A stretch of 64,000 bases of DNA from Lachnospiraceae bacterium (GTDB lineage Bacteria > Bacillota > Clostridia > Lachnospirales > Lachnospiraceae): positions 38,364 to 102,363 of the forward strand of contig JAZOTN010000030.1 in assembly GCA_045657665.1 (NCBI GenBank), written 5' to 3'. Shown piece by piece: positions 6,066-59,222 of the stretch. The notes under the pieces are model-generated. The model did no database searches. It was not told where the DNA came from and was given only the letters and a program-made list of their open reading frames with translations. Each line of letters opens with the position of its first letter. Within the stretch, counting starts at the first letter, position 1. Made by a program: the position numbers and the translations under genes.

Positions 6066-6115
6066 TGATATAGTCGGATCACAAAAGAAAAGCAATGTAG
6101 AAAGAGGTATATAAA

Positions 6116-40232: not shown

Positions 40233-40538
40233 ATGGCAGTGATCAGTCCCGTTTCGGGTTTAAGAAACTATAATACAGTGTTAGACAAAGTGGAATACGG
40301 TTCCCCTGTCTATCTGACTGTGAATGGACGCGGCAGATACGCCATTCGGGATTTAGATACCGTTTTTTCGGATGTACCTAAGGCATCAAGTGACATAGAA
40401 CTCACACATCAATACCTTGATGATTTGCAGGATAAAGTAGAGGAAGTGGCAAAACGCCCTGAGGCGCGACTATATGAGGATTTTGTTTCTCATAGAGGGG
40501 GATTAAAACTATTTCTTGTGATACTTTCCGGATTATGA
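40233..40538 (+). CDS. Phd/YefM-family type II antitoxin-like protein (no adjacent toxin gene)
   Basis: N-terminus ISPVSGLRNYNTVLDKVEYGSPVYLTVNGRGRYAIRDLD matches the Phd/YefM fold signature. The hydrophobic tail LKLFLVILSGL is atypical. Confidence 0.6.
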   Translation: MAVISPVSGLRNYNTVLDKVEYGSPVYLTVNGRGRYAIRDLDTVFSDVPKASSDIELTHQYLDDLQDKVEEVAKRPEARLYEDFVSHRGGLKLFLVILSGL

Positions 40539-40578
40539 TAGACTAATAACTGGAATCCAAGGGAATAAACGGTGTACC

Positions 40579-40730
40579 GCCGGGCTGAGATTGCCGTCTC
40601 GCCCGGCAGGGATGGTTGAATACAGCAACCACACGATACAGACAGGGTCTGCGGCACACGCAAACGTATTGTAGCATATTTTATATGCGTTTACAAAGTG
40701 TTTGAGTAGCCGCAGCACGTTGTTTTTTGT
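40579..40730 (+). other. Structured non-coding region (three hairpins, the last terminator-like)
   Basis: Hairpin 1: GCCGGGC-T-GAGA-TTGCCG-TCTC-GCCCGGC (40579-40607). Hairpin 2: GGTTG-AATACAG-CAACC (40614-40630). Hairpin 3: CTGCGGC (40649-40655) pairs with GCCGCAG (40709-40715), with inner CAAAC/GTTTG pairing, followed by TTGTTTTTT. No credible ORF. Confidence 0.4.
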
Positions 40731-40857
40731 GTCCGACTTTAAGGAGCGGGTACAGGTGTGGAAACATGCTTGTACCCGCTCTTCTTGGATTCTTCTAAAA
40801 GTGTGAATTGAATAGTGTCAGATACAGGATTACAACGTGGCGGAAGGAGGAACTGTG

Positions 40858-43800: not shown

Positions 43801-45432
43801 ACGGTTGGAAAAGCGGTTTCATCACTTGTGATTGCACCCAAATCGGGAGGCAATCAGCTTGCAAAAGGGAAAACAATGTCCTTGGTAGCGACATTTCAAC
43901 CGACAAATCCCTTAAATAAAACTCTTACATGGGCGAGCAGTGATGAGAATGTTGCGGTGGTCAGTAAAGCAGGCGTCGTGAAGGGCATTGGAGCAGGTAC
44001 GGCAACAATTCGTGCCGTCAGTGAGGCGGGAGAAAAAGGTGCTTCCTATACTGTGCGGGTATATGTTCCGGCAACGGGAATCAAGTTGAATCAGAGCAAC
44101 ATCATTCTTGGCGCCGGGAAAAGCTTTTCTCTTCAGGCGACAACCTCACCCGCGGATGCGTCCGGCTCGTCGATTACGTGGACAAGCAGTGACGAGTCGC
44201 TGGTAACAGTGGATGGAAACGGAAGGGTGACAGCAAATGCGATTCCGCAGGGAAAAAAGAGCGCATCGGCAAAAATCACGGCAACACTTCTTTCTGACGG
44301 CGGAATCAAAAAAGCAGCCACCTGTTCTGTTACAGTAAAGCCGGAGATTGGCGTTACGGCAGTAAAACTGAATAAAACCAGCCTGAAGTTGGGGGAGGGG
44401 AGCGTTTACACGCTTTCTACGTCAGTGTTGCCGGTTACCGCGGATAATACTGCTATTATCTGGAGTACAAGTGACGAAAGCGTTGCGAGGGTGAGTCAGG
44501 ACGGAGTGGTTACGGCGGGGACGGTTCCGCAGGGAAAGAAAACCGCAACGGCAAAAATAACCGCGACGGCAGCAGACGGAAGCAAAAAGGCGGCGTCCTG
44601 CACCGTTACTGTGGGAAACGCGGTTACGGCGCTTGCGATTACAAACGGAAACGTAAGACTTGCCGAGAAAAAGACACTTACACTGAAAACCGTTTACAAC
44701 AGCGGAGACAAAAATACGCCGGTAAACACAGGGCTGATCTGGACAAGTAGTAATGAAAATATAGCAAAAGTCAGCGCAAAAGGAGTGGTAACGGCAGTCG
44801 GAAACGGTACAGCAACAATCACTGCGACATCTGAGGAGAGCCTGGCAACCGGAAGCCAAAAGAGCGCTTCTTGCATGATTACATCTTATGTTCCGGTTTC
44901 AAAAGTGGCACTGAATCGAACCAGTGTGTCTATAGGAAAAGGGAAGACGATTACACTGCAGGCATCTTCTATTCTTCCGGCAAATGCGGCGGATAAGACA
45001 TTAGTGTGGAGTAGCAGCAATTCAAGCATCGCATCGGTAGACAATGCAGGAAAAGTGACGGCGAATGGGGTCGGCACGGCACGTATTACTGTAACAGCAG
45101 CGGATGGAAGCAAAAAAAGCGCTTCCTGTACTGTGAAGGTGCTTGGACGTGTCAGTGAAATTTCTATTGCGGAGACCCGGGGTGGAATTACAAAGAAAGC
45201 AGACGGTTCCTATACCTTAAGCATCAAGAAAGGAAGGACGATGACAGCAAAAGCCGTGGTGTCACCATCCAACGCAGTGGATAAAACGGTTTCCTATCGA
45301 AGCAGCAATCCCTCTATCGCAACTGTCAGCGCTTCGGGACAAATTAAAGCGGTCGGCAATGGAACGGCTGTGATTACCGTGACATCCTCTGACGGGGGAT
45401 ATAAAGCTAAATGCACAGTAACGGTGGAATGA
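40858..45432 (+). CDS. Very large secreted surface protein: signal peptide, Cys/His hydrolase-like domain, 2 x 112-aa repeat, ricin-type lectin, about ten Big_2 Ig-like domains
   Basis: Signal peptide MKKMWKRFLTAAICCAFFGAQLG. GIGCFAYACD...APGHTFVVL is a papain-fold-like Cys/His pair. QxW motifs NQQWSI and NQKWKF indicate a ricin B domain. Repeated ~85-90-aa units (ATVLPxxAxNKxxxWxSSNxxxATVxxxGxVTAxxxGxAxIT) indicate Big_2 domains. I see no LPXTG motif or choline/SLH anchor. Confidence 0.8.
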   Translation: MKKMWKRFLTAAICCAFFGAQLGSERILATENESETVTEDDSLQDDGLAVEETEDNENNSVGEAQAQEESGHEDDLEEIQVDSVGRGSVSMSESEYNSKMNAFISDGRWCNGRAWGYYKEPEMVSRERSGIGCFAYACDFSKYMYGIDNYTDGEAYTDINAIRTGDVIRAPGHTFVVLSRNGNNLYTAEGNYGLTNPSVSIRNPGYQIIGESFYNPNSREYSTLEMGYHFVNVTQNNFKYSVDKVEGGRGTVHLVGWVFDDVNISKSIQIHAYIDGGPGSGAAGYAIDANVARTDVDAAYHCGAFHGFDYVIQGISSGNHVVQLFANDQYNGTSKKIGEYSVSVATPNVFKYGVEKVEGGRCSIRLAGWVFDDANISRSIQVHAYIDGGPGSGAEGYAIDANVARTDVDASYHCGAFHGFDYVIQGISSGNHVVQLFANDQYNSTNKKIGDFSVSVVAPPVMRDGEGAGQTVPDGDYQIQLAAYNGEWTLDVPGDTAAIRNGTNAAICKGFNRKYDVFTVKYLGNGYYNILHKGSGKCLDMGSSLKNGGNVYFYDNGGIGHLNQQWSISKDSDGWFRIRSRWSGLYLDGGGDNYNVHQWEGKESIANQKWKFLCSVKSVSLNQSAISLNVGETQALTATVLPDDASNKRVSWISANPAIATVDSMGKVVAVKKGKTTITVKTEDGGYTGTCAVTVTEKQSGMPNPTTNEKVTEIALSQAAVSIYTNENEQNAVTLTASVLPENASNKTLAWTCANPQIASLSVDESTGKATITAVSNGKTKVTVKATDGSAKTAVCDVTVSTKTEGISLYWASGKTLTEIGAVSLAEGKTGTLKVVQNPLGSSTVRMIWFSSDASVATVSQSGLVSAKSNGVATIEAVSEDGEYSATCTVTVYEPVTSIKLGKTALKIGEGDSALIPVTAVLPETATNQEIVWSSSNEDVATVSSEGMVTAKQLPTGKQTATATVTALAADGSGKSAKCTVTVGKAVSSLVIAPKSGGNQLAKGKTMSLVATFQPTNPLNKTLTWASSDENVAVVSKAGVVKGIGAGTATIRAVSEAGEKGASYTVRVYVPATGIKLNQSNIILGAGKSFSLQATTSPADASGSSITWTSSDESLVTVDGNGRVTANAIPQGKKSASAKITATLLSDGGIKKAATCSVTVKPEIGVTAVKLNKTSLKLGEGSVYTLSTSVLPVTADNTAIIWSTSDESVARVSQDGVVTAGTVPQGKKTATAKITATAADGSKKAASCTVTVGNAVTALAITNGNVRLAEKKTLTLKTVYNSGDKNTPVNTGLIWTSSNENIAKVSAKGVVTAVGNGTATITATSEESLATGSQKSASCMITSYVPVSKVALNRTSVSIGKGKTITLQASSILPANAADKTLVWSSSNSSIASVDNAGKVTANGVGTARITVTAADGSKKSASCTVKVLGRVSEISIAETRGGITKKADGSYTLSIKKGRTMTAKAVVSPSNAVDKTVSYRSSNPSIATVSASGQIKAVGNGTAVITVTSSDGGYKAKCTVTVE
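41566..42237 (+). repeat. Direct tandem duplication, 2 x 336 bp, inside the surface-protein gene
   Basis: The period is exactly 336 nt. An 80-nt tract is identical between copies (41758-41837 and 42094-42173), while the flanks have diverged. Confidence 0.9.
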
Positions 45433-45489
45433 GAAAAAAACATTTGTACCCGTTTTTTGGATTCCGTAATTAACAAGGAGAGAAAGCAG

Positions 45490-47022
45490 ATGAAAAGAAA
45501 TATTTGTCCAGTTGTTCTGAGTGGGATTTTAGCACTTACATTTTCGGCATGTGGCAGTACGATAACGCAGACTGAGTCTCAGATTTCTACCGAGACGGAA
45601 AAGGCAGCGACGACAGAAAATGATGAAACAATTACGAATACTGAATCAGAGAAATCTGAATCAGAAGAACCGGAATCAGAGGATGCTGACGATCAGAATG
45701 CAGATGTAAGGAAAGAAGTAGAAGAGTTACTTGATTTGAATATTGATGAATATGAAAGCACAGGGCATGTGTGCGGAGGGGTGATTCCTGTTTATAATGA
45801 ATCGAAATGGGGGGCACTAAACTATAACGGGGTAGAGATCATTCCTTGTGAATATGATGGATATATTTGTGGACCTAATAAAGATGGGTATATTGTGATG
45901 TTCAAAGGTGATGAAAATGCGGAATATACACTTTTTGACAATACTGGGAAAACGATATATCAAGGACCGGAGCATATTGTGGCAAGTAATGGATTTTACA
46001 TTATTGCACGTGGAGACGAAGAGAATGGTCAGACCAATACGTTCATAGATTATTATCACTATGATGGAACGCTCGTTACATCTGTCGACACGCAATCGCC
46101 GGGGGATTGGGGTGTTAGTTGGGAACCGCACGGTTTCTATGATGGATTGTCGCTGGTGGAAAGGAATATGGGAAGTGTAGTTTATTCCAGAAGCGATCAG
46201 ACAGCAGTTATGCCATTTGATGTGGGATTTGTGAATGAGGGAGGCAGTGTAGATTGGCATGACGGAGATGGATTCGACGAGACAGATTATTCTGAAGTTA
46301 TGGGGTATGAGGAATATACCAGTCAAGCTACCGCGGCAAACAGTACGAACAGTAATACCGGTCAAGCGTATGGGGCGATGAGTGTTGCAAACGAGTCCAT
46401 ACCGATGAATTCGCTGAATAATGGATATTACCTGGCATATTATGAGTTTTCGGGAGAACGCGTGCTGCGAGATAAGGATCATATCGTCGCGGCTGTTATG
46501 ATGGATATGATTACGTTGCAGGATGATGCGCTCATATATGGTAAGGATAGCGTTTCGGCAGCGGGTAATAGTTTCCCGATATATGGCAGCGACTCTGAAA
46601 CGTACTACGATGAGAATCGCATCCTCGCATACCCGTCGGACGGTGATTGGTATTATAATTATGGATCAAAAATACTGATGTATATCAATGGCAAATATGT
46701 ATTAATGGATCTCCTGTCATCTGAAGAATTAAAATATAATGTTTTTGATTATTGTGAGATGAGCGATGAGAATTATTGGCTTGTACAAAGTGGGGATCGG
46801 TGGGGATATATTGATCACGAAGGAGAAATAAAAGCACTTTTCGAGGACGCCGGAGCCTTTCATAATGGAGTCGCTCCGATAGTTGAAGGTAAGATGGCAT
46901 ATTTGATAGACGAGAATTTTGAGAAGGTTCAGGAACTCGGGGAGGCGGACAGTGTATATTGCGCGGGGGAAATCTTTGTGATTAACAAGGACGGAAATAA
47001 AAGGCTGTTTGCATTGAAATAG
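45490..47022 (+). CDS. WG-repeat (KWG-like) lipoprotein
   Basis: Lipobox LALTFSAC, an acidic linker, and WG-repeat units (KWGALNYNGVEIIPCEYD; RWGYIDHEGEIKALFEDAGAFHNGVAPI). ATG 45490 is preceded by AAGGAGAG. Confidence 0.75.
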   Translation: MKRNICPVVLSGILALTFSACGSTITQTESQISTETEKAATTENDETITNTESEKSESEEPESEDADDQNADVRKEVEELLDLNIDEYESTGHVCGGVIPVYNESKWGALNYNGVEIIPCEYDGYICGPNKDGYIVMFKGDENAEYTLFDNTGKTIYQGPEHIVASNGFYIIARGDEENGQTNTFIDYYHYDGTLVTSVDTQSPGDWGVSWEPHGFYDGLSLVERNMGSVVYSRSDQTAVMPFDVGFVNEGGSVDWHDGDGFDETDYSEVMGYEEYTSQATAANSTNSNTGQAYGAMSVANESIPMNSLNNGYYLAYYEFSGERVLRDKDHIVAAVMMDMITLQDDALIYGKDSVSAAGNSFPIYGSDSETYYDENRILAYPSDGDWYYNYGSKILMYINGKYVLMDLLSSEELKYNVFDYCEMSDENYWLVQSGDRWGYIDHEGEIKALFEDAGAFHNGVAPIVEGKMAYLIDENFEKVQELGEADSVYCAGEIFVINKDGNKRLFALK

Positions 47023-47209: not shown

Positions 47210-47551
47210 ATGCATGGCGTGTCCATGTACCTTGGAAAAGAATTGACCATCAAGGCGCTGCTTTGTGCGTATGCATTGCTGAAAAATGGCGGTTATATGA
47301 AGTATGATTATCTGATTATGACGGAATCCATGCGTCGTGTGTTGGCAACGCAAGGGTGGCCGAAGGGTCGCGGGGAGATGGATATTTTTCCGAATGCGCA
47401 GGAGGCGATAGAACGTGCGCGGGAAGTGACGTCGGTTGTGAATGACACCCTGAAAGGGAATGGTTTTTTTGACATTGATGACATTCAGACGACATTGGTC
47501 GAGCCATGGGGCGCAACCAGTGTCAGAGTGACGATGCGGAAGTACGTCTGA
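47210..47551 (+). CDS. Hypothetical small protein (113 aa)
   Basis: ORF with balanced protein-like composition but no recognisable motif. The start is uncertain. Confidence 0.35.
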   Translation: MHGVSMYLGKELTIKALLCAYALLKNGGYMKYDYLIMTESMRRVLATQGWPKGRGEMDIFPNAQEAIERAREVTSVVNDTLKGNGFFDIDDIQTTLVEPWGATSVRVTMRKYV

Positions 47552-47694
47552 GTTCAGGTTTAACCGAATGTCCCAATCATTGATCCAACTGGAAACAGGC
47601 ACATTGAAAACTTCATATTGGAAGGCGCAGAATGTCTTGTCGGAAGACGAGAAACATGGTATCTTATAAGCATATAACATCGAAAGGAGCAGTG

Positions 47695-47988
47695 ATGGAT
47701 CATATAGCCCTTGCAAAACTTTCTTTTAAGAAGAATCGTGAAATGATTACACACTCTGAAATTATCGAATCGGACGGTACGGCAAGGATCAAAGTTTATT
47801 TTGAGAAAATCAACGATGCTGGAGATGATTTCGATTGTATGACGGTTCTATATCCTGACATCAAAGTAATTGAAAACAATGGATATTCTGAGCAGGAGAT
47901 TTCTCAAAGAATAGATGAGTTTCGGAGATGGGGAGAGCTTGCTATGGCTGCAGAAATGGAGCGGATTGAAGAACGATGCCCAGCATAG
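47695..47988 (+). CDS. Hypothetical small protein (97 aa), upstream partner of the DUF4160 gene
   Basis: ATG 47695 has RBS AAAGGAG 5 nt upstream. The 3' end overlaps the DUF4160 start by 13 nt. Confidence 0.45.
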   Translation: MDHIALAKLSFKKNREMITHSEIIESDGTARIKVYFEKINDAGDDFDCMTVLYPDIKVIENNGYSEQEISQRIDEFRRWGELAMAAEMERIEERCPA

Positions 47989-48257
47989 GTGAAATATTCG
48001 GGTATAAGATTTATTTTTACAGCAATGAGAATGATCCACTCGAACCGGTGCATGTTCATATGGGAAAAAACATGTATGATCAGGCTGCAAAAGTGTGGAT
48101 TTGCTCTGACGGCAGTATTGAGATCGCTTATAACCATTCCATTCCGGAACGGCAGATGGAAAAGATTGTAGACGCATTATCAATCATTTCTGAAGACATT
48201 TGCAATACATGGTTCCAATATTTTGACGATATTTCTTACTTTGACAGAACAAAATAA
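47976..48257 (+). CDS. DUF4160-family small protein
   Basis: IFGYKIYFYSNENDPLEPVHVHM is the characteristic DUF4160 N-terminal motif (f.i.iy..dH.PPHfH-like). Confidence 0.65.
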   Translation: MPSIGEIFGYKIYFYSNENDPLEPVHVHMGKNMYDQAAKVWICSDGSIEIAYNHSIPERQMEKIVDALSIISEDICNTWFQYFDDISYFDRTK

Positions 48258-48286
48258 GAGTTAGCAAGTATCAGGATTCAGAGAAG

Positions 48287-48315
48287 GCGCTTTCCATATG
48301 GAGGGCGCTTTTTTG
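48287..48315 (+). terminator. Intrinsic terminator after the small-ORF cassette
   Basis: GCGCTTTCC-ATAT-GGAGGGCGC (two G-U pairs) followed by TTTTTT. Confidence 0.7.
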
Positions 48316-48356
48316 TGTGTTGTTTTGACTCGAAGTGTTGATGGAGGAATAAGGAA

Positions 48357-50057
48357 ATGTTTTGCGGAAAATGCGGGAATCAATTACCGGATGATGCTTT
48401 ATTCTGTACGAAGTGTGGGATAAAGATTAATATCGGGGATCAACAAAATAGAAACACTTCCAACATGAACGGTATGCCTGGAAGAAAGCAGGATCAGAAA
48501 GCAAAGCTATCTCGAATTCTGATTGGTGTTGGGATCGGGGCCGTCGCTGCCGTGGTATTGATCGTGGGGATTGTTGTCGCTGGTGATTTGTTGGGGGCTA
48601 GGGCATCTGACCGTGGAACAGAAGCAAATGGAGCAGCAGACAATAAATTCGTTTCGATTTTCGACAAATCAGGGATAGGCGAGGAACCTTACAACCATGA
48701 GACAAGCAATTTCCGAACTGTGGGAACGCCGATATCAATGTTGAGTTGGGGTTATACTAATTATCCATATCCGAGCGAACCGGGGAGTATAGCTTATTAT
48801 AACGGGTTCACTTATTATGTCGAAGAATTAGTAGACGTGAATGATACTTTGGAAGAGAATCCATCATTGAAAGGATCGAAGATCATGAGGGTTTCCGATG
48901 ATAACACAGAACCGGAGTTGGTGGCAGTTAACGAAGGAGAAGAAGTGCTGGGGTATCTGACGTTTTTTGGGGATCAGCTTTATGCGCTAGGAACGGATGA
49001 TGTATATAATATGTATTCCTCATTGGAGATGTCGCCCTCCGAGGAATCCACATATGAAACAACAAAGGATTATTCGGTATATAAAATCGACACAAAAGGC
49101 GGAAAAATAAACTACCTGACTACGATTGATCATGTTGGAGGAAGCGGGATTGTGTCGGAAGATGAGGAGGGTTATTATTTCCAAACGTCACAACCGGAGG
49201 GGAATGATCGACAGAGAAATGAACTTGTGATTTTTCATGCATCGGACGCTGACGTGGAAAGGGTTGATCTGGGAAGCTGGCGAGACTGGCGTGGCTCGGA
49301 CGTTTCCGAATCAGATGAGGCATATTTTCCCTTGGGAATATATATGGGACGCGCATATTATGCAAGACAGGATGGCGGACAAAAGAATTCGATCATTTCC
49401 TATAATCTTTCCGGAGAAGATGAAAAAACTGTTTTCCATATTGAAGGGATAGACAATTTTTTGTATAACTTTTGCAATTTCCAGTGGCATTTTAGTCAAA
49501 TGTATCCGGGAATGTATGACAAATCGATTGGAGCAAACTGTATTTTTGCAAATGATGGATTATATATTTACACAGAGGGGACTACAACTGGTTCGGGTTA
49601 CATAGAGAATCCCAGTATTGAACGAATAGATCTGAATACAGGGGAGATTACAAAGGCGTGGGAATTAGATACGTCAGATATAACGTCAGATACAGGTTTA
49701 ACGGGGACAAATGGAATGGATGTTTGGAGGAAAACAATCAGCATAGCGGTTGATGGTACGCTTTCCGACAATGATCAGGAGATATACACGATACTCAACA
49801 AGCTTTCTGATGATTCTGATACAGAATCGGGAGAGATAAAACTTCCGAATTATAACGCCGAAATGATCGGATATGGCGGGAATTGGATTTATACGGTTGG
49901 TTTTGATCGGACTTATACGGTTTTTGCTGAAACGCCGCTTGCAGACTTTATAACTGAAGTAAAAAGACAGGAAGATGTCGGTATAGGGTTTTATCGCATC
50001 AACAAAGATACTGGAGAGGCAGACTTTATTCCGATGTACGAAGAACTGACAGATTAA
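48357..50057 (+). CDS. Zinc-ribbon / single-pass membrane protein with a large extracytoplasmic domain (566 aa)
   Basis: N-terminal MFCGKCGNQLPDDALFCTKCG (two CxxC pairs), TM ILIGVGIGAVAAVVLIVGIVVAG, and a ~470-aa Tyr/Gly/Asp-rich ectodomain that may be beta-propeller-like. Confidence 0.75.
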   Translation: MFCGKCGNQLPDDALFCTKCGIKINIGDQQNRNTSNMNGMPGRKQDQKAKLSRILIGVGIGAVAAVVLIVGIVVAGDLLGARASDRGTEANGAADNKFVSIFDKSGIGEEPYNHETSNFRTVGTPISMLSWGYTNYPYPSEPGSIAYYNGFTYYVEELVDVNDTLEENPSLKGSKIMRVSDDNTEPELVAVNEGEEVLGYLTFFGDQLYALGTDDVYNMYSSLEMSPSEESTYETTKDYSVYKIDTKGGKINYLTTIDHVGGSGIVSEDEEGYYFQTSQPEGNDRQRNELVIFHASDADVERVDLGSWRDWRGSDVSESDEAYFPLGIYMGRAYYARQDGGQKNSIISYNLSGEDEKTVFHIEGIDNFLYNFCNFQWHFSQMYPGMYDKSIGANCIFANDGLYIYTEGTTTGSGYIENPSIERIDLNTGEITKAWELDTSDITSDTGLTGTNGMDVWRKTISIAVDGTLSDNDQEIYTILNKLSDDSDTESGEIKLPNYNAEMIGYGGNWIYTVGFDRTYTVFAETPLADFITEVKRQEDVGIGFYRINKDTGEADFIPMYEELTD

Positions 50058-50080
50058 GGGCAGGAGGTATACTAAAGCGG

Positions 50081-50586
50081 ATGTTTTGCGGAAAATGCGG
50101 AAATCAATTACCGGAAGGAGCTCAGTTTTGCACAAAATGCGGGGCAAGGCGACTGAGCGAAAATGTTGACAGCAACCAAATTGAAGAAAAGCATGCGGGC
50201 GGTACTGTGATTGGAACACCAATATGGAAAACAGTAATGATTGGCGTAGCAGAGGGGCTTGCAATTTGTGCCATAATATTACTGATTGTGGTTTTGTTAT
50301 TTACTGGTGTTTGAATTCGCTTTGGTATAAACGGTTCATGGGTTGCACAGATTCTGCATGGACAGATAAGGAGGGAGAGGTTGTTTATTTTGATGATCTG
50401 GTTACGAATTTCTGGTGGAGCCTGATGGATTCCTGTTCTTTAAAGAAAGAAAATGGCACGTATAAACTGTATGTTACACCATTCAACGGCTCGACAATGA
50501 TTTTTGATGTGATGGTTACGGATAAGGATCATGTTTTACTAAAATACGAAGATGGCAATGAAATACATATGGAAAGTGTGAAATGA
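50081..50586 (+). pseudogene. Zinc-ribbon / TM protein gene interrupted by a frameshift near 50300-50315
   Basis: The 50081 frame encodes MFCGKCGNQLPEGAQFCTKCG plus a TM and stops at 50314. A protein-like continuation (NSLWYKRFMGCTDSAWTDKEGEVVYFDD...HMESVK) runs in another frame to 50586. Confidence 0.5.
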
Positions 50587-50598
50587 AAGGAGAGGTTC

Positions 50599-51141
50599 AT
50601 GATGGAGGAAAGGAAAAGCAGAACGAGAATTGGAGTATCCGTAAATTTTCTGGCAATGATTGCCTGGCTAAGTGTAATCGGCGGAGAGTGGATACCGTTC
50701 TTGGTGGCAGGTGCAATATTAGTGTTGGAAAAGGATGGATGGCTGAAAAAGCAGATGATAAAGGTACTTGTTCTGGCAGTGGCTGTCCGAGTCGGTAATT
50801 ATCTTTTGTTCACACATTTGATTGATCTGATTTTCCCACAATGGTATTTGAACGCGGGTGTTTTAATATTAAAGATCATCGTGTATCTTGCGGAGGATGC
50901 ATTGTGGATTGTACTTGCTTTAAGAGCATGGAAGAGGACGCCAAGTTATACTTCGTTGGATCATTTTGCGGAAGGCTGCCTGGAAACAGAATATATCTCG
51001 GGGACCTCGACGGATACAGAGATGACTGGTAGTAAGACCCCGACTGTATCAGTGGCATCTGCAAACGTATGTCCGAATTGCGGAAAACTAATCAGCGATG
51101 AAATGGATTTCTGTGTAAATTGCGGAACAAAGGTAAGATAA
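50599..51141 (+). CDS. Polytopic membrane protein with a C-terminal zinc ribbon (180 aa)
   Basis: About four TM helices, then CPNCGKLISDEMDFCVNCG at the C-terminus. RBS AAAGGAGAGG. Confidence 0.7.
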   Translation: MMEERKSRTRIGVSVNFLAMIAWLSVIGGEWIPFLVAGAILVLEKDGWLKKQMIKVLVLAVAVRVGNYLLFTHLIDLIFPQWYLNAGVLILKIIVYLAEDALWIVLALRAWKRTPSYTSLDHFAEGCLETEYISGTSTDTEMTGSKTPTVSVASANVCPNCGKLISDEMDFCVNCGTKVR

Positions 51142-51198
51142 AAAAATATGCGCACGGAACTGCGGATACCAAAAAGATATTGAGTGAGGGACAAAGGT

Positions 51199-52845
51199 AT
51201 GTTCTGTCATAAATGTGGAAATCAAATCCCGGAGGATGCCCTTTTTTGCCCGAAATGTGGGACAGAGATACTTCGAGTAAGGGGGGACAAGATCGGACAT
51301 CCAAAACAAACGGAATCTGTGTTAGGAGAAACCGAGGATAGAAACGGTGGAAAAGCGTTTTTTTCCATGCCGAGGAAATTGAGAAGACATGAATGGATTC
51401 TTTTAGTAGGGTGTCTGTCTGCGGTAGTTGTTTTTATTATTCTTATAGGGATTGGCATCGACATTATGAAGCAAAGAAGCGGCACTGATGAATCTTTGGT
51501 AGATTCAATGTCTGCATATACGGATTCTGAAGAATTAAACGGCGTGCTGCCACCACTGGCAATGCCCGAAACAAATACACTGGTAGATCCGCAGACAGAA
51601 ACGATTCTACAAGATTCTAAAGATACAATAAGGTCAGAGGAAGAGAATCTTACAGAAAAGACTGCATTTACTATGTACGATCTGAGCTATGTAGAAGATT
51701 TTTCAGAAAAACATGCATGGGTACGATATTGGGATGTTGATAAGCTTTATTGTGCTTTGATGAATGAATCTGGAGAAGCTATTTTTAGCGAATGGGCAGG
51801 ATATGATTGGAGAAGGATGGGGACAATGAAAAATGGGATAACTTGGTATACCTATGATGATGGAACAGATGATCCCCCTTTTGTAATCATAAACTCGCAA
51901 GGGGAAATACTGTTTGATAGTGAGAGAAATGAAGAAGCGGGGGAAGAACTATATCTTGTTGGAGTATCCAATGGGAGATTTGTCGTAGAGAAAAACAAGC
52001 GTAACTTTTCGGAGAATGTAACAACCATTTTTACGATGGATGAAAAAGGAAATGTTATAAATCCTGAAACAAAGATTGAAAATTATGCTTGGGAATGCAG
52101 TGGAACACCGGTTGGAAATGGCCATTTAATTTATATTTATGGCACTGGGGTTTATATCGTATACAATATAGATACGAATGAGCTTATATATATGCCACGA
52201 GATTTTTTTAATAGTATGGCATATGATGAAGGTTTTTTTATATCAAATTTTGGAAAAGTAACATCAGAAGCTGTTTTTGCAAGTCAAGAAACATATGATG
52301 CTTTACTATTTGCGGATGGATACGCATGGGACTTGGGAGAAGCAAATGTGTGGCAGAATAATAACACTGTAGGGGAGGGCTTGTATTATTTTGGTGGAAA
52401 TGGTAATGTCCCGTCGGGCTATTATGATCTGACAGGAAAATGGCAATTTGCACCGATAATCCCAAATGGTGGGAAAATAGTGGAAACATTTGCGTTTTCG
52501 GGAGAATATGCGCCGATTGAGTTAGAAGGAATGGATGGAGAAAAATATATTTCCATTATTGATAAAACAGGAAATTTACAATATGAACCAGTGAAGCAAA
52601 ACGATGTAGATGGACATTGGCATGGATATGTACTTGTCAGTAATAACGGTAAACACAATATCGTATTAACTCCAGATGGCGAATCAAAACAGATAGGATT
52701 AGCAGATCTTTCAGAAATGGGTGACGAAGCATATATTGAAGGGTATTTGAGTGGTGGTTTTTTTATGGATACATACGAGCACGTATATCGTAGTATTGAC
52801 GGGAAAAATACTATACATGAAATAAAAGTGGGACAGATGTACTAA
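51199..52845 (+). CDS. Zinc-ribbon / single-pass membrane protein with a WG-repeat-like ectodomain
   Basis: MFCHKCGNQIPEDALFCPKCG, TM WILLVGCLSAVVVFIILIGIGI, and WG-repeat-like units (FSEKHAWVRYWD..., FSGEYAPIELEG...KYISIIDKTGNLQYEPV). Confidence 0.72.
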   Translation: MFCHKCGNQIPEDALFCPKCGTEILRVRGDKIGHPKQTESVLGETEDRNGGKAFFSMPRKLRRHEWILLVGCLSAVVVFIILIGIGIDIMKQRSGTDESLVDSMSAYTDSEELNGVLPPLAMPETNTLVDPQTETILQDSKDTIRSEEENLTEKTAFTMYDLSYVEDFSEKHAWVRYWDVDKLYCALMNESGEAIFSEWAGYDWRRMGTMKNGITWYTYDDGTDDPPFVIINSQGEILFDSERNEEAGEELYLVGVSNGRFVVEKNKRNFSENVTTIFTMDEKGNVINPETKIENYAWECSGTPVGNGHLIYIYGTGVYIVYNIDTNELIYMPRDFFNSMAYDEGFFISNFGKVTSEAVFASQETYDALLFADGYAWDLGEANVWQNNNTVGEGLYYFGGNGNVPSGYYDLTGKWQFAPIIPNGGKIVETFAFSGEYAPIELEGMDGEKYISIIDKTGNLQYEPVKQNDVDGHWHGYVLVSNNGKHNIVLTPDGESKQIGLADLSEMGDEAYIEGYLSGGFFMDTYEHVYRSIDGKNTIHEIKVGQMY

Positions 52846-52902
52846 AGAACAAGCACCCTTTCTAAATGATGAAAATGCTTTTTTTGATGGAGAAATATAG
52901 AA

Positions 52903-54006
52903 ATGTTCTGCCGTAAATGCGGAAATGAAATCCCGGAAGGCGCTATATTTTGCGTGAAATGTGGGACAAGAATAAATGATGACAACATAGAATCCTATCG
53001 GAAATCCAACATGGGAGTTTGGATTGCGCTGACGGCTTGCATTACTGCGGCGGTGGTTCTTTTGATCGTAATTGCAGCCATTATTATCCGAGGAAATCAA
53101 AGGGAGGATTATGAAATCGTTCATGAATTGGTGGAAATCCCTGAAACGAGAGAGGAAGAGGAGGCTATTAAAGGCGAGACCGAGGAAGCAAGTGAGGCAG
53201 ATCAACCGGAGATTACTTCAGATGAAGAGACTGCTCAAAATGAAAAAATGGATACATCGGAACGCCCGGGGTTTATTCCGCTAAATACCCACTCGAAGAT
53301 TACGGATGTGGAAAAGGTCGTGAATGATATTGATATGGTCTGTGGTCTTGTGGATTCGGGGAAGTATGATGGAATCGGACCGAACAACTATTATAGGGTA
53401 TGGCAAGAGGATGGTGGATATATAGATCGGCTGATAAAGACCGGCCTCGGGACAGGAAATGATTCGGAACTGGATTCTTTGATGGAGAAATACGGGTATA
53501 TCGTCTATCAGATATTGTTCTATTATGATAATGAAGCGAGCGGAATGGATGCAATCTCGGATGGCCCAATAAAAATAGTGGCTGATATAGATGGGAGAAA
53601 CTACCAGTATTATTTCTTTTTCAATAATTTGATCCGAAGAGTGGCGCCGGAGGCGACAACCGATAATCCGGAAACGAATGAGTTCTTGCAGGAGCTGTAC
53701 CGGATTGGTTTTGAAAAACGTTGGGATTATAATGATTCGAATCGCGTAAGCACGGATAATAATACGGAGAATAACACTGAAACGAACACGGCTCTATATA
53801 AGATTGTTGTTTCGGCCTATGATAATTTTGTGAATTTAAGAACCGGACCCGATACGGCTTTTGAGATCTTGACCCCAATCTATAATGGAGTGGTGTTGGA
53901 GATCCAAGACGCTGTGGAGACAGAAAAGGGGTGGTGGATGAAAACTACATTTCAGGGCAAAACAGGATGGATTGCAGCATCACAGGTCACCATACTGCAG
54001 GAATAA
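52903..54006 (+). CDS. Zinc-ribbon / single-pass membrane protein with a C-terminal bacterial SH3 domain
   Basis: MFCRKCGNEIPEGAIFCVKCG, a TM and an acidic linker. The C-terminus VNLRTGPDTAFEILTPIYNGVVLEI...GWWMKTTFQGKTGWIAASQV is SH3_3-like. Confidence 0.72.
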   Translation: MFCRKCGNEIPEGAIFCVKCGTRINDDNIESYRKSNMGVWIALTACITAAVVLLIVIAAIIIRGNQREDYEIVHELVEIPETREEEEAIKGETEEASEADQPEITSDEETAQNEKMDTSERPGFIPLNTHSKITDVEKVVNDIDMVCGLVDSGKYDGIGPNNYYRVWQEDGGYIDRLIKTGLGTGNDSELDSLMEKYGYIVYQILFYYDNEASGMDAISDGPIKIVADIDGRNYQYYFFFNNLIRRVAPEATTDNPETNEFLQELYRIGFEKRWDYNDSNRVSTDNNTENNTETNTALYKIVVSAYDNFVNLRTGPDTAFEILTPIYNGVVLEIQDAVETEKGWWMKTTFQGKTGWIAASQVTILQE

Positions 54007-54164
54007 TATGTTTTTTCACAGAAATCATGGTACATGGGAACAATAAAACCGGATGATTTTAATGAGGATGCTTTTTTAACCAATATGAAAAGGCAAATCG
54101 TGATCTGGTTGTCCGGTATGTAAAGGGAAATTACTAAAAAAAGAAAATGGGAGGAACTCAAAAA

Positions 54165-54689
54165 ATGGATAATGAAAAAGTTGTTGACATTCGTCCAGAA
54201 GGTGGAATACGTTTTAATGGGTTTGCTGCTACACTGCAAATCATTGGCGGAGTATTATGGTTAGGAGGATTAATCCTCGGCATCGTGACGGGGTTAGGTC
54301 TTGGCAATGTGTTTAACTACTTTGGAGGGTCTTCTTTTTCATGGGGATCAGCTCTTACGATATGGGTTGCTGCATTCGTAGCAGGGCTGGTTCCATTTTG
54401 CTTTGCGGAAATTATCAGTCTTTTGCAGAAGATCGCAACACAGCATTATCGTGTGGGTGAAGAGGTACAACTACGGGAGACTGTGGCGAAGGAAGCAGAA
54501 AAAGCACAAATGCCGGAGAACACGGAAGCAAAAAAGGTACAAGTACCCACACAGCCTGTTGTAACGGAAATAACGAAGAGTGAAAAGACAAAAGAAGAAT
54601 CTCCATACCTGTTTTGCCCAAAATGCGGGAAGAAGGTGGAGCAACAGAATTCCATTTTCTGTGCTGGGTGTGGAACAAGACTGGAGTAG
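54165..54689 (+). CDS. Membrane protein (2-3 TM) with a C-terminal zinc ribbon
   Basis: TM segments, a charged linker, then FCPKCGKKVEQQNSIFCAGCG. ATG 54165 is 8 nt after GGGAGGA; 54147 is the alternative start. Confidence 0.68.
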   Translation: MDNEKVVDIRPEGGIRFNGFAATLQIIGGVLWLGGLILGIVTGLGLGNVFNYFGGSSFSWGSALTIWVAAFVAGLVPFCFAEIISLLQKIATQHYRVGEEVQLRETVAKEAEKAQMPENTEAKKVQVPTQPVVTEITKSEKTKEESPYLFCPKCGKKVEQQNSIFCAGCGTRLE

Positions 54690-54717
54690 ATGCTCCGTAA
54701 AGCAGAGGCGATAGAAG

Positions 54718-56223
54718 ATGTATTGTAAGCGATGCGGAAAAGAACTGAAAGAGGATATGCGCTTTTGCGTATATTGCGGACAGGATCAACAGGGAAAGGT
54801 TCTGCCTGATGCTCCGGACGGGGTACCGAAGCGGAAAGAGATGCGTTCGGAAAAGAAAGAAGAGATTCCGATATGGATCCCGGTGCTTCTTGCTATAATT
54901 CTGGTGGTATGCGCGCTGGTTGTGCTGGTTCTTTTTTTGCATAGCAGAAGTAAGGATAGCGACGAACCTGCTGGAGAGCTTGTGGAAACATTGGAAGAGA
55001 GGATAGAGCAGGAGACGGAACGGGAAACAGAAACGACGGAAAAGGAGAAAGAGACGAAAGAGAAACTTTCCGGAAAAGGAATAGCGGAAGCGGCATCGGG
55101 AAACGATGGGGATGCATTCTTGATCAATTCGGATACTGTCGCGGATTACTCGACCTGTCTTGACCCGAAGCAGTATCAATACTACGATTCCGGGATCGTT
55201 TTTTTTAGTTTTTATTATCCGGTAAATCTTTTTAATCGTGTGGAGGTGGACGAAGAAGACAATTCCATTGTGATTGGGAACCAAATTGCAAAAAATGAGC
55301 AGTCGGTGCAGTTTTACGCATCAGATGGAACAGAGGCGTTGTTTCAGGTCATGAACCGCATGGAGGCAGGTGGAGTGGATCCGAAGTTGGGAGAAATATA
55401 TGCAGCGGAGAACCAGCAAAGATTTCATGGTGAAGGTGTGGGTGACCTGCATTATGAGAATGGATACGGTTGTTTTTTCCTGAGTGGATATCAGAACGGA
55501 AATGTGATTTATGAATTCGTGAACATGAATAACAACCAGATCTATCGCTTTTTTTCAATTACACCACCATGGACAGATATCAATGATCGCGCAATGAAAG
55601 AGTATGTGACAACCTGCATGGAGCGTATGACAGGATTTGCATATTCCAAAGAGGTTCCGACATATGAGGAATTTCTGGAGAAAAATGCGGAGCGTTTTCG
55701 TGATTCCGAGTGGGCTTCAGAGACGAAGGGGATCATGCTGTCGCCGGATGTGGTTGATTTTGTTTACTCTACATTCGGAGAAGCAAAGTCAAAGTATACC
55801 ATGGTGGATTCGGAATTCACGCATGCGGGTCTGTATCAATCTACGGCAATAGAGCTGGGAGTTTCCGGGCAGTATGATGGTTATCACAACGATACTTGGA
55901 TCATGATGGATTCTGACGAATGTACCGAAGCGATTGGAAAAGTAAGCGCGATTTTTCCCGGCTATCAGCAGGCAATGCCGATAGAGAAGTTTGCCGCAAG
56001 TGTTTATGCAGACGGAGAAAAATCAGGCTCGGCGGTTCTTCGCTATGAGCCGGAAGGATATATGCCATATGGCGGAGAGTACTATGAAATATACATCCCG
56101 ACCAAATTGCCGAGCGGGATGGGAGTGACGATGACATTGATTGTTTCAACGAGTGACTTTTCCGGGACGCTGGATCCGTCTAAGACGGTTATTTTGGTGA
56201 GGGATTATGTCCCGTTGTCATAG
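54718..56223 (+). CDS. Zinc-ribbon / single-pass membrane protein with an unknown ectodomain (501 aa)
   Basis: MYCKRCGKELKEDMRFCVYCG, TM IWIPVLLAIILVVCALVVLVLFL, an acidic linker (ETERETETTEKEKETKEK), and a ~370-aa unassigned domain. Confidence 0.72.
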   Translation: MYCKRCGKELKEDMRFCVYCGQDQQGKVLPDAPDGVPKRKEMRSEKKEEIPIWIPVLLAIILVVCALVVLVLFLHSRSKDSDEPAGELVETLEERIEQETERETETTEKEKETKEKLSGKGIAEAASGNDGDAFLINSDTVADYSTCLDPKQYQYYDSGIVFFSFYYPVNLFNRVEVDEEDNSIVIGNQIAKNEQSVQFYASDGTEALFQVMNRMEAGGVDPKLGEIYAAENQQRFHGEGVGDLHYENGYGCFFLSGYQNGNVIYEFVNMNNNQIYRFFSITPPWTDINDRAMKEYVTTCMERMTGFAYSKEVPTYEEFLEKNAERFRDSEWASETKGIMLSPDVVDFVYSTFGEAKSKYTMVDSEFTHAGLYQSTAIELGVSGQYDGYHNDTWIMMDSDECTEAIGKVSAIFPGYQQAMPIEKFAASVYADGEKSGSAVLRYEPEGYMPYGGEYYEIYIPTKLPSGMGVTMTLIVSTSDFSGTLDPSKTVILVRDYVPLS

Positions 56224-56662
56224 CTTGTTGGCAGAGGTAAAAAAGGCGAGAGGTTTGTTGAAATATAACGATTGCAAAAAGCATGATGTAGAAAATGAAT
56301 CCTGATATGAAGTCTGGTTACTTTATTTCAGGGATTATTATGTCGGAAATTCTTTCTTTACAAGATAGTAGAACCATGCTATAGTGGCTCTATCAATTCG
56401 AAGATGGTATCAGAACGTTTCGTTCATATTTTCCACGAATTACGATAACAGAATGAAAGCAACCTAAGATCCTTTCGTAATGCACTGCATGTATCGTCTT
56501 ATGGTCTTATCATCTCGAATTGAAATTCAAAAACAAAGGAGATGATGCAAGGAGGAGGACGTGATTTGGGGTGTTGGGGCTGTTTTTGTGTAGAGACGGA
56601 AATTGCCCGTGGATGTGCTTGCATGGGGATGCAGGCGTGTTTATAATGAAAGGAGAAGTATT

Positions 56663-57577
56663 TTGAGTGGGGTTAACAATGAGTATAAGGATCGTCTGTT
56701 TGGAGCGATATTCGGACGGACGGAACACCGAAAGTGGACGCTGAGTTTGTATAATGCGATCAACGGCTCTTCGTATGAGGATCCGGAGGAGATCGTAATC
56801 AATACGATGGATGACAGCGTTTACATGGGAATGAAGAATGATGTCTCGTTTATCCTGCAGGGACGGATCAGTATTTATGAGCAACAGAGCAGTTTCAACC
56901 CGAACATGCCGTTGCGTGAATTTATGTACGCAGGAAGATTGTACGGAAAGCATGTGCGGGAGCAACAGCAGAATGTCTATGGAGAAGCGCTGATTCATCT
57001 TCCGGTTCCGAGACTGGTAGTTTTTTATAATGGATCGCGGAACAAAAAGAACCAAATTCTTAGGCTGTCAGATGCATTTCCGGATGAGATTAAAAAAGAG
57101 TCGGACATCGAAGTCAAGGTTCGGATGATCAACATCAATTACGGACATAATCGAGAGTTGATGAAAAAATGTAAGCCACTTGCGGAATATGCATGGTTTG
57201 TGGATATGATTCGAAAAAACATGGATACGATGGAGATTGAGGCCGCGGTGGATAGGACAATTGATGCCATGCCGGAGGACTATGAAATCAAGAGCTATCT
57301 GATGGGCAATAGAGAGGAGGTCAGGATGTATTTCATAACAGAATATGATGAAGAAGAACACATGAAGCTTGTGCGGCGGGACGCCAGAGAAGAAGGAAGA
57401 GAAGAAGGCATAGAACAAGGCATAGAACAAGGCATAAAAGGCTTTATTGAGGACAAACTGGAGGACGGCATCCCGATTGATAAGATTCGGGAAAAGCTGA
57501 AGAGGATCTATCAGCTGCCCCCGGAGAAGATTGAAGAATACCTGGAAAAATACGCGGCAAATATGGCTGCATCATAA
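56663..57577 (+). CDS. Rpn-family recombination-promoting nuclease / putative transposase (PD-(D/E)xK)
   Basis: NEYKDRLFGAIFGRTEHRKWTLSLYNAINGSSYEDPEEIVINTMDDSVYMGMKNDVSFIL is the characteristic N-terminus. The C-terminal EEGREEGIEQGIEQGIKG repeat is typical of Rpn/YhgA-like proteins. The TTG start at 56663 follows AAAGGAG. Confidence 0.75.
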   Translation: MSGVNNEYKDRLFGAIFGRTEHRKWTLSLYNAINGSSYEDPEEIVINTMDDSVYMGMKNDVSFILQGRISIYEQQSSFNPNMPLREFMYAGRLYGKHVREQQQNVYGEALIHLPVPRLVVFYNGSRNKKNQILRLSDAFPDEIKKESDIEVKVRMININYGHNRELMKKCKPLAEYAWFVDMIRKNMDTMEIEAAVDRTIDAMPEDYEIKSYLMGNREEVRMYFITEYDEEEHMKLVRRDAREEGREEGIEQGIEQGIKGFIEDKLEDGIPIDKIREKLKRIYQLPPEKIEEYLEKYAANMAAS

Positions 57578-57629
57578 GCGTGATCGCAGGTTTTCCGCCA
57601 AGACAGCAGCCGGTGAAGGAAAGAGGTTT

Positions 57630-58790: not shown

Positions 58791-59222
58791 ATGTCAATAT
58801 TGATGACAACCGGTGCATCCGGTGCTACAGGAGGCGGAATGGCTGGCGGTGGAGCAATGATGATCGTATGGATCGTTGTTCTGGTCGCTTTCATGTATTT
58901 CTTCATGATCCGTCCGCAACAGAAAGAAACCAAAAAGAAAAATGCAATGATGAATTCGCTGGAGGTCGGCGATACCGTCCTTACGACCAGCGGATTTTAC
59001 GGAACCGTGATTGATATGAATGAAGACACGGTGATCGTTGAGTTCGGCAGCAACCGAAATTGCCGAATCCCTATGCAGCGTGCTGCGATCTCCGCGGTAG
59101 AAAAGCCGGAGCAGGCTGTTGAGGAGAAGCCATCGAAAGAAGAGAAGAAGGATAAGGATAAAGATGGCGAAAAGAAAGGGTTTTCGTTGTTCGGCAAAAA
59201 GAAGGACGAGGAACAAAAGTGA
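58791..59222 (+). CDS. yajC: Preprotein translocase subunit YajC
   Basis: TM followed by FFMIRPQQKETKKKNAMMNSLEVGDTVLTTSGFYGTVIDMNEDTVIVEF, the YajC signature. Confidence 0.88.
   Translation: MSILMTTGASGATGGGMAGGGAMMIVWIVVLVAFMYFFMIRPQQKETKKKNAMMNSLEVGDTVLTTSGFYGTVIDMNEDTVIVEFGSNRNCRIPMQRAAISAVEKPEQAVEEKPSKEEKKDKDKDGEKKGFSLFGKKKDEEQK

Follow-up and report, generated by a model that had tools for sequence, protein, structure and literature searches.

A seven-gene array of zinc-ribbon membrane proteins with mutually dissimilar ectodomains in a Lachnospiraceae genomic island

Proteins that join a ribbon of the Zn_Ribbon_1 type to transmembrane (TM) segments are common in Gram-positive gut bacteria, and to our knowledge a function is known for almost none of them. 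This study concerns seven consecutive genes for such proteins, here named g1 to g7 (Table 1), at 48357-56223 on the forward strand of a 64,000-nucleotide stretch of DNA from a Lachnospiraceae bacterium (contig JAZOTN010000030.1, positions 38,364 to 102,363), and the whole of this stretch is referred to as the window. The original prediction, made from the sequence of the window, knew of no assigned function for such arrays, and in this it overlooked several described relatives. According to its model, TcaA of Staphylococcus aureus has a zinc finger inside the cell, a single TM segment and most of its mass outside, and it affects the retention of wall teichoic acid (PMC10328498). In Lactococcus lactis the operon llmg_0524-0525-0526 encodes two ribbon proteins, Llmg_0524 with two TM segments and the TcaA-like Llmg_0526 with one, in which a cytoplasmic N-terminal CX2CX10CX2C motif binds zinc; the operon affects cell-wall integrity, and deletion of the motif from Llmg_0524 impaired growth and altered lysozyme sensitivity (PMC4628341). 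Bacillus subtilis has a ribbon protein, SamG (YdjG), that together with the polytopic SamH serves as the membrane anchor of SamI, a cytosolic SPFH protein, and through SamI of PspA (bioRxiv 10.64898/2026.02.06.704340; PMC9239133). Finally, proteins in which a ribbon and a TM segment precede a YARHG domain have been proposed to be membrane-tethered transcription factors; their ribbons belong to PF13240, PF12773 and PF13248, and they are confined to Gram-positive bacteria (PMC3355149).

Each of these systems resembles the array in part. Like TcaA, g1, g4, g5 and g7 begin with a Cys4 finger, which is followed by one TM segment and a large C-terminal part that would lie outside the cell. However, tcaA occurs singly, in the tcaRAB locus, and is not a member of an array, and its ectodomain is unrelated to those in the window. 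When compared by ribbon and architecture only, the lactococcal proteins have a spacing of cysteines identical to that of the array and, as in the window, several ribbon membrane proteins stand together, but that operon has two ribbon genes where the window has seven, and no cassette variability has been reported for it. The pairing of SamG with SamH is matched in the window by the association of ribbon membrane proteins with polytopic ones. In contrast to the array proteins, SamG, whose gene belongs to the pspA-samGHI operon and whose ribbon is annotated as TF_Zn_Ribbon, is without large diversified ectodomains; no pspA or SPFH gene was found among the ORFs scanned near the array, and no relationship to SamG could be detected beyond the ribbon. 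The YARHG proteins have the same architecture and the same ribbon families, and a member is found inside two related arrays described below, whereas the array of the window is without a YARHG domain and the original treatment (Coggill and Bateman 2012) was of single proteins. On sequence grounds none of the seven proteins appears to be orthologous to TcaA, Llmg_0524/0526, SamG/YdjG or the YARHG proteins. Orthology with TcaA was rejected with the NF053815 profile, whose cut-off is 550 bits: the best scores, 18.6 for g2 and 16.4 for g7, come from matches to profile positions 4-71 only, that is, to the ribbon and the TM segment. The ribbon and TM type of protein is thus already known; what is new here is the set of ectodomains, the turnover of cassettes, the gene conversion and the recurrence of tandem paralogues. 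No description of arrays of such ribbon genes was found in the literature.

The seven open reading frames (ORFs) follow one another on the same strand with gaps, in order, of 23, 12, 57, 57, 140 and 28 nucleotides (nt), and each combines a Cys4 ribbon with one or more TM segments. Here the original prediction is borne out by the ORFs, by hydropathy and by the Pfam hidden Markov model for Zn_Ribbon_1 (PF13240), for which all seven genes lie above the gathering threshold of 25 bits (g1 32.7, g2 36.5, g3 31.5, g4 37.6, g5 34.7, g6 25.9 and g7 28.0 bits). The cysteines are spaced CX2C-X10-CX2C in six genes, with X11 in g6. In g1, g2, g4, g5 and g7 the ribbon is N-terminal, with the form M[FY]CxKCG...FCxxCG and cysteines at positions 3, 6, 17 and 20, except that Arg replaces Lys in g7 (MYCKRCG), and one strongly hydrophobic segment follows 30-50 residues after it. 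The layout of g3 and g6, both of 180 residues, is the reverse, with the hydrophobic segments first and the ribbon within the last 25 residues. At the DNA level the pattern M[FY]CxKCG-x9-CxxCG has four matches in the window where shuffled sequence gives an expectation of 0.00, and a six-frame scan of the 64 kb by regular expression and hydropathy recovered exactly these seven ORFs, with no further ribbon and TM ORF in the remaining ~56 kb. Promoter-like sites were not enriched (41, against 38.1 in shuffled sequence).

Alignments of homologues of g1, g3 and g7 show the four ribbon cysteines to be invariant, and homologues were found as arrays and not only as scattered singletons. In both layouts the positive-inside rule and the need for a reducing compartment would place the ribbon on the cytoplasmic side, and since the same motif binds zinc in Llmg_0524/0526 the ribbons of the array probably do so too. 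The ectodomains have no detectable similarity to one another. This agrees with the earlier view of an intracellular handle that carries variable surface modules. None of the ectodomains has an NCBIfam family, and in the PHROG collection only the ribbon segment was matched, weakly, and nothing beyond it. The ectodomain families of the array are very narrow. A search of 5.8 billion proteins gave g1 no more than three clusters of full-length homologues, and g7 has six clusters. The polytopic g3 and g6 likewise belong to small families, that of g3 having five clusters with the cysteines invariant in all. The database protein P0009 is identical to g3.

For g1 a propeller-like ectodomain had been guessed, and modelling supports that guess. 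The AlphaFold model, built on a shallow alignment, is all-beta with a predicted template modelling score (pTM) of 0.61 and a mean predicted local distance difference test (pLDDT) of 56; in Foldseek it has 329 matches in the PDB at E<=1e-3, the best of which, with probability 1.0, are the propellers of prolyl oligopeptidases, TolB and Kelch proteins. A beta-propeller is therefore supported for this ectodomain by a model of moderate confidence. The gene g2, which had been described as a frameshifted copy, is indeed disabled, although not by a single frameshift. Its intact homologues in the related contigs L002 and L005 encode 164 residues, with a ribbon, a TM segment and a small ectodomain, and relative to them g2 carries a 12-nt insertion with an in-frame TGA as well as a 1-nt deletion. 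Because these are two separate lesions, g2 is a genuine pseudogene and a sequencing slip is unlikely.

The repeat-rich ectodomain of g4, for which WG repeats had been proposed, may be WG-like. No match to WG_beta_rep (PF14903) was found in g4 itself with Pfam at E<=0.1, and such matches occur in two of 39 members of its family; hhalign links g4 to the WG lipoprotein encoded upstream (Table 1) with a probability of 95%, but over 66 columns only, which is a weak link. The ectodomain of g4 has 435 relatives and belongs to the same family as the WG-like lipoproteins, from which g4 differs in being anchored by a ribbon and TM segment and not by a lipobox. Among 115 matches at the level of the ectodomain, 65 have a lipobox, 24 another hydrophobic N-terminus and five a ribbon as in g4. 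The anchor is thus interchangeable, an ectodomain of the g4 type being mostly lipoprotein-anchored elsewhere. In g5 the predicted SH3 domain is confirmed at residues 310-360 by SH3_3 (PF08239; 36.2 bits against a cut-off of 27), and its closest solved relatives by sequence, although the matches are weak, are SH3b domains, one from an enterotoxin and one from a cell-wall hydrolase.

The polytopic g6 is a shortened relative of a 300-residue protein encoded in the L002 and L005 arrays, whose N-terminal half it matches (45-46% identity over 150 residues to L002_12844 and L005_15280). The ratio of nonsynonymous to synonymous substitution (dN/dS) is 0.155 for the N-terminal region of g6 and 0.33 for g1 in comparison with L002 and L005, and these values indicate that both sequences have been under purifying selection. 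In the model of g7 the conserved core has a pLDDT of 65-88, and Foldseek returns PsbP-like matches with probability 0.9-1.0, TM-scores of 0.4-0.5 and E of ~1e-3 to 1e-2, so that a PsbP/DcrB/TiME-like fold is weakly suggested. A homologue of g7, P0019, has a ribbon, a Ser/Thr kinase domain, a TM segment and then the same ectodomain core, and from its sequence the ribbon can evidently persist upstream of a true signalling domain. P0019 is the product of the first of two adjacent Ser/Thr kinase genes in L006 (1204-6656). Public records hide the ribbon of two of the seven genes: of the protein records identical to them, P0021 starts at Val41 of g4 and P0014 starts 13 residues into g7. Likewise, the gene calls of L002 and L005 cut off the ribbons of their YARHG gene and of a 687-residue protein.

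Comparison with related loci proved informative about how the cluster evolves. The relatives are L001-L005, which are metagenome contigs, and L007, a Lachnospiraceae metagenome-assembled genome and the only match among GTDB species representatives, from which the window too can be placed in this family. All have the same kind of array downstream of a WG lipoprotein gene and a toxin-antitoxin (TA) pair, and their arrays adjoin infC-rpmI-rplT. Their core is made up of g1, g2 in intact form and g3, together with a g6-like, a ribbon-YARHG and a g7-like gene, and L002 has exactly these. The YARHG domain (PF13308) is present in the L001-L005 arrays and had no Pfam match among the window proteins, while g4 and g5 occur in the window only and are absent from L001-L007. 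L005 has in addition the gene for the 687-residue repeat protein, flanked by an orphan ribbon stub of 49 residues and by a 47-residue copy of the C-terminal ribbon of g3, and in L007 one gene has two tandem ribbons, of the g1 type and then g4-like, followed by a different ectodomain. Breakpoints and orphan stubs alike are concentrated at the ribbon modules. Across its interior (48447-50097) g1 is ~98.7% identical to L002 with a synonymous divergence (dS) of 0.049, whereas dS for the adjacent WG lipoprotein gene is 0.48 and identity in g2 is 63-86%, and this disparity points to a recent exchange of the g1 cassette between lineages. The cluster is lineage-specific, recombination-prone, demonstrably dynamic and unusually large.

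The 5' ends of the genes offer direct evidence of gene conversion. Four of the genes begin within copies of an 85-nt repeat that spans the ribosome-binding site (RBS) and the ribbon (family D1, Table 1). Between the opening 36 nt of g1 and those of g2 a single difference had been counted; there are two, at positions 21 and 36, and the proposal built on this, that the 5' module is copied or homogenised, stands nevertheless. Within their first 12 codons the window's g1 and g2 have nine of ten synonymous codons in common, where the orthologous pairs in L002 and L005 have one of eight. Moreover, the 5' end of g1 in the window agrees with g2 of L002 at 7/10 synonymous codons and with g1 of L002 at only 2/9. 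Since the synonymous codons of g1 match g2 and not the orthologous g1, the first ~35 coding nt of g1 have been converted to the g2 type. A bolder extension, which we regard as doubtful, is that the RBS and ribbon module of ~85 nt, besides being a protein tag, serves as portable homology for swapping, fusing and replacing ectodomain cassettes, and that the arrays are a general system of surface diversification. If this were true, the logic would be analogous to that of cassette-based antigenic or receptor variation and the system would be widespread in metagenomes, with the polytopic ribbon proteins as its unchanging partners in the membrane.

That such clusters recur is seen in metagenomic data. 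An exact-pattern scan of metagenome contigs gave at least 120 matches, from gut, soil and freshwater samples, and all counts that follow are among the matches listed. A ribbon and TM gene could be detected on 104 contigs, and on 19 of these it has a directly adjacent paralogue on the same strand, typically across a gap of 13-155 nt. The ectodomains are without BLASTP similarity in 16 of 19 scorable adjacent pairs. No contig has more than three such genes, and most of the contigs are short. Because adjacent paralogues are this frequent and their ectodomains mostly dissimilar, a shared handle with differing ectodomains in tight tandem is a recurrent pattern, of which the window is a large example.

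As to what the array does, the original prediction offered surface sensors, receptors or tethering proteins as options. The most likely interpretation, to which we give about an even chance, is that it encodes a fast-evolving set of binding or sensing modules, displayed in the envelope on a common cytoplasmic zinc handle. The single-TM members would have the N-terminus inside and the C-terminus outside, with a Cys4 zinc knuckle of ~22 residues in the cytoplasm, a disordered basic linker of 25-45 residues, the TM helix and then the extracytoplasmic domain: a propeller in g1, WG-like repeats in g4, an unassigned domain with SH3b in g5 and a PsbP/DcrB-like core in g7. SH3b, YARHG, WG-like, propeller and PsbP/DcrB-like domains are typical extracytoplasmic binding modules, and the ectodomains, situated at the interface of membrane and wall, could bind ligands of the envelope or the environment. 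On the cytoplasmic side the zinc ribbon would be a compact and stable plug or handle; it would fix the topology and might offer a docking site to a cytoplasmic partner common to the members. The mirrored g3 and g6, in which a cytoplasmic linker joins a TM bundle to the C-terminal ribbon, may serve as membrane partners of the single-TM members. The cluster as a whole evolves by gain, loss and exchange of cassettes together with gene conversion at the 5' module of RBS and ribbon. Zinc binding, surface display and a physiological role are in this sense what we infer for the array.

Several observations weigh against this interpretation or parts of it. The mean pLDDT of the structure models is only ~56 and the PsbP-like assignment of g7 is weak. 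No cytoplasmic partner is encoded in the island, and for this reason the idea of a docking handle is speculative. As g2 is a pseudogene, not every member can be needed, and for g3 and g6, which are without an ectodomain, display is not a sufficient explanation. In P0019 the g7 ectodomain is fused with a kinase, which suits sensing better than pure display and is a pointer towards a sensing role.

The alternative that survives best, although we consider it unlikely, is one-component transmembrane signalling, in which the proteins would be membrane-tethered regulators, similar to transcription factors or anti-sigma factors, with an ectodomain that binds a ligand and a cytoplasmic ribbon that binds nucleic acid or a component of transcription. 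This is what has been proposed for the ribbon-TM-YARHG proteins, which have the same architecture, and zinc ribbons often bind nucleic acids (PMC3355149); YARHG ribbon proteins are themselves present in the related arrays, and the kinase protein P0019 has the g7 core. However, the cytoplasmic part of the array proteins amounts to ~22 structured residues and a poorly conserved linker with pLDDT <50, the scanned ORFs of the island include neither a sigma factor nor a response regulator nor a regulator of another kind, and g3 and g6 have no sensing domain. The family of the g4 ectodomain, being mostly lipoprotein-anchored, needs no cytoplasmic output. Because the relatives of this ectodomain are mostly lipoproteins, and because the ribbon-TM linkers are short, variable and modelled as disordered, we lean toward anchoring and display over conformational signalling. 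An identity as anti-sigma factors of the ZAS type was rejected, as there is no zf-HC2 (HxxxCxxC) match at E<=0.1 and no sigma factor gene among the scanned neighbours.

The pairing of single-TM with polytopic ribbon proteins recurs in g2/g3, g6/g7, Llmg_0524/0526 and SamG/SamH, and by analogy this suggests that the two kinds form membrane complexes. It also brings into view a second alternative, a scaffold for envelope stress or membrane maintenance of the SamG/SamH (YdjG/YdjH) type, which would recruit cytosolic remodelling or repair factors as SamG and SamH recruit SamI and PspA, and the effect of the lactococcal 2-TM and 1-TM pair on the cell wall is in keeping with it. Yet the 19 scanned ORFs of the island and its flanks include no PspA, SPFH (band 7) or PspC-type gene in Pfam, and large variable ectodomains and strain-level turnover of cassettes would not be expected of a housekeeping stress scaffold. 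The detectable relationship to SamG does not reach beyond the ribbon, and we think such a role quite improbable.

A role in interaction with phages, by superinfection exclusion, receptor decoys or receptor variants carried on a mobile island with TA genes, is in our judgement very improbable. In its favour are the low GC of the island and its TA-like genes (a DUF4160 pair, with a PIN toxin at the same position in relatives), the Rpn-like gene at the island end, the strain-to-strain differences in gene content and the weak PHROG matches. These matches, however, are confined to the ribbon segment, and the core of the array is chromosomal and syntenic in the related contigs beside infC-rpmI-rplT. 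A known anti-phage defence system was rejected, no PADLOC family being matched by g1 or g3-g7, and so was prophage cargo. No relative of g7 was found in 2.9 million viral contigs. That the array is a decaying paralogue cluster without current function is hardly credible, for although g2 has two disabling lesions, L005 has orphan ribbon stubs and a truncated gene remnant lies upstream of the array, the other six ORFs are intact, dN/dS lies at 0.15-0.33, and between sequences of 40-50% identity the cysteines and a number of ectodomain positions do not vary.

The interest of the locus lies in the finding that ribbon-TM paralogues with unrelated ectodomains form tight same-strand clusters, a pattern that recurs across environments. 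Even close relatives differ through a rapid turnover of these clusters, the breakpoints of which lie at the ribbon module, and the same ectodomains are elsewhere lipid-anchored or coupled to a Ser/Thr kinase. Ribbon arrays are therefore candidate determinants of strain-level differences in the cell surface of Lachnospiraceae. Should the locus prove ordinary, the gain would be in better annotation, as public annotation places the starts of g4 and g7 too far downstream to include the ribbon.

Table 1. Positions in the window of the array genes and of neighbouring features (TM, transmembrane segment; aa, amino acids).
Feature	Position	Strand	Description	Basis
g1	48357-50057	+	566 aa; ribbon aa 3-20, TM ~aa 56-74, propeller-like ectodomain	
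g2	50081-50586	+	Pseudogene; 77-aa ribbon and TM stub open at 50081-50314, remainder in another frame	
g3	50599-51141	+	180 aa; ~4 TM, cytoplasmic linker, C-terminal ribbon (C158, C161, C172, C175)	
g4	51199-52845	+	548 aa from MFCHKCG; N-terminal ribbon, one TM, repeat-rich WG-like ectodomain	
g5	52903-54006	+	367 aa; N-terminal ribbon, one TM, unassigned domain, C-terminal SH3b	
g6	54147-54689	+	180 aa; 2 TM, cytoplasmic linker, C-terminal ribbon	
g7	54718-56223	+	501 aa; N-terminal ribbon, one TM, conserved core of ~190 aa, variable C-terminal region	
5' module family D1	48338-48422, 50062-50146, 51180-51264, 52884-52968	+	85-nt repeat, RBS and ribbon	Repeat search
Big_2/ricin gene	40837-45432	+	1531-aa secreted protein with ten Big_2 and ricin-type lectin domains	Pfam
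WG_beta_rep lipoprotein gene	45457-47022	+	Accompanies the array; 84% identity to the gene upstream of the L002 array	Clear Pfam match
Gene remnant	47210-47551	+	113-aa ORF between the WG lipoprotein gene and the DUF4160 pair	
DUF4160 pair	47632-48257	+	Unassigned 118-aa ORF overlapping a DUF4160 protein gene, upstream of g1	
Terminator-like hairpin	48281-48314	+	15-bp stem and T run, between the DUF4160 pair and g1; conserved in L002 and L007	
Rpn-family gene	56603-57577		Putative transposase, weak match; at the island end	

The suggestion that the array belongs to a genomic island was also sound. It lies within a stretch whose guanine-plus-cytosine (GC) content is 0.40-0.44, against ~0.50 elsewhere. 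The limits of this stretch are tgt (39018-40163) and, on the opposite side, an HD-GYP gene with yajC (58791-59222), and one of its ends has the Rpn-like gene. The two borders of the island share no direct or inverted repeat of at least 14 nt. The ends of the island (window 40530 and 57620) are contiguous in L002 at 6050-6700, where a 3' remnant of the Rpn-like gene (equivalent to window 57316-57621) directly precedes a leader (equivalent to window 40533-40678). The relation is like that of a circular permutation, and this arrangement of sequences suggests that a block of ~17 kb may have moved as a unit.

Between the WG lipoprotein gene and g1 the content of the locus varies. The gene remnant at this place is the C-terminal third of a 372-residue protein that is intact in L005 and L007 (88% identity, residues 260-372). 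The site occupied by the DUF4160 pair has in L001-L005 (~9250-9866) a 75-residue ORF and a PIN-domain toxin instead, so that at an unchanging position upstream of g1 one TA-like two-gene cassette seems to have been exchanged for another.

Upstream of the array the Big_2/ricin protein has an N-terminal region without a Pfam match, and its gene is absent from the L002 and L005 loci, where the leader directly precedes the WG lipoprotein gene. This leader (window 40540-40830, forward strand; L002 6425-6680; L005 5424-5690), which in the window stands before the Big_2/ricin gene, is conserved and highly structured, with a minimum free energy of -120.7 kcal/mol (z = -8.1), and ends in a terminator-like hairpin; ten pairs have compensatory changes, a count that comes from only three sequences. 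There is no Rfam match to it even at E<=1, and its sequence makes it a candidate for an undescribed riboswitch or attenuator. Between tgt and the leader, at 40233-40500 on the forward strand, lies a short ORF (MAVISPVSGLRNYNTVLDKVEYGSPVYLTVNGRGRYAIRDLD...) that by eye has a likeness to antitoxins of the Phd/YefM type.

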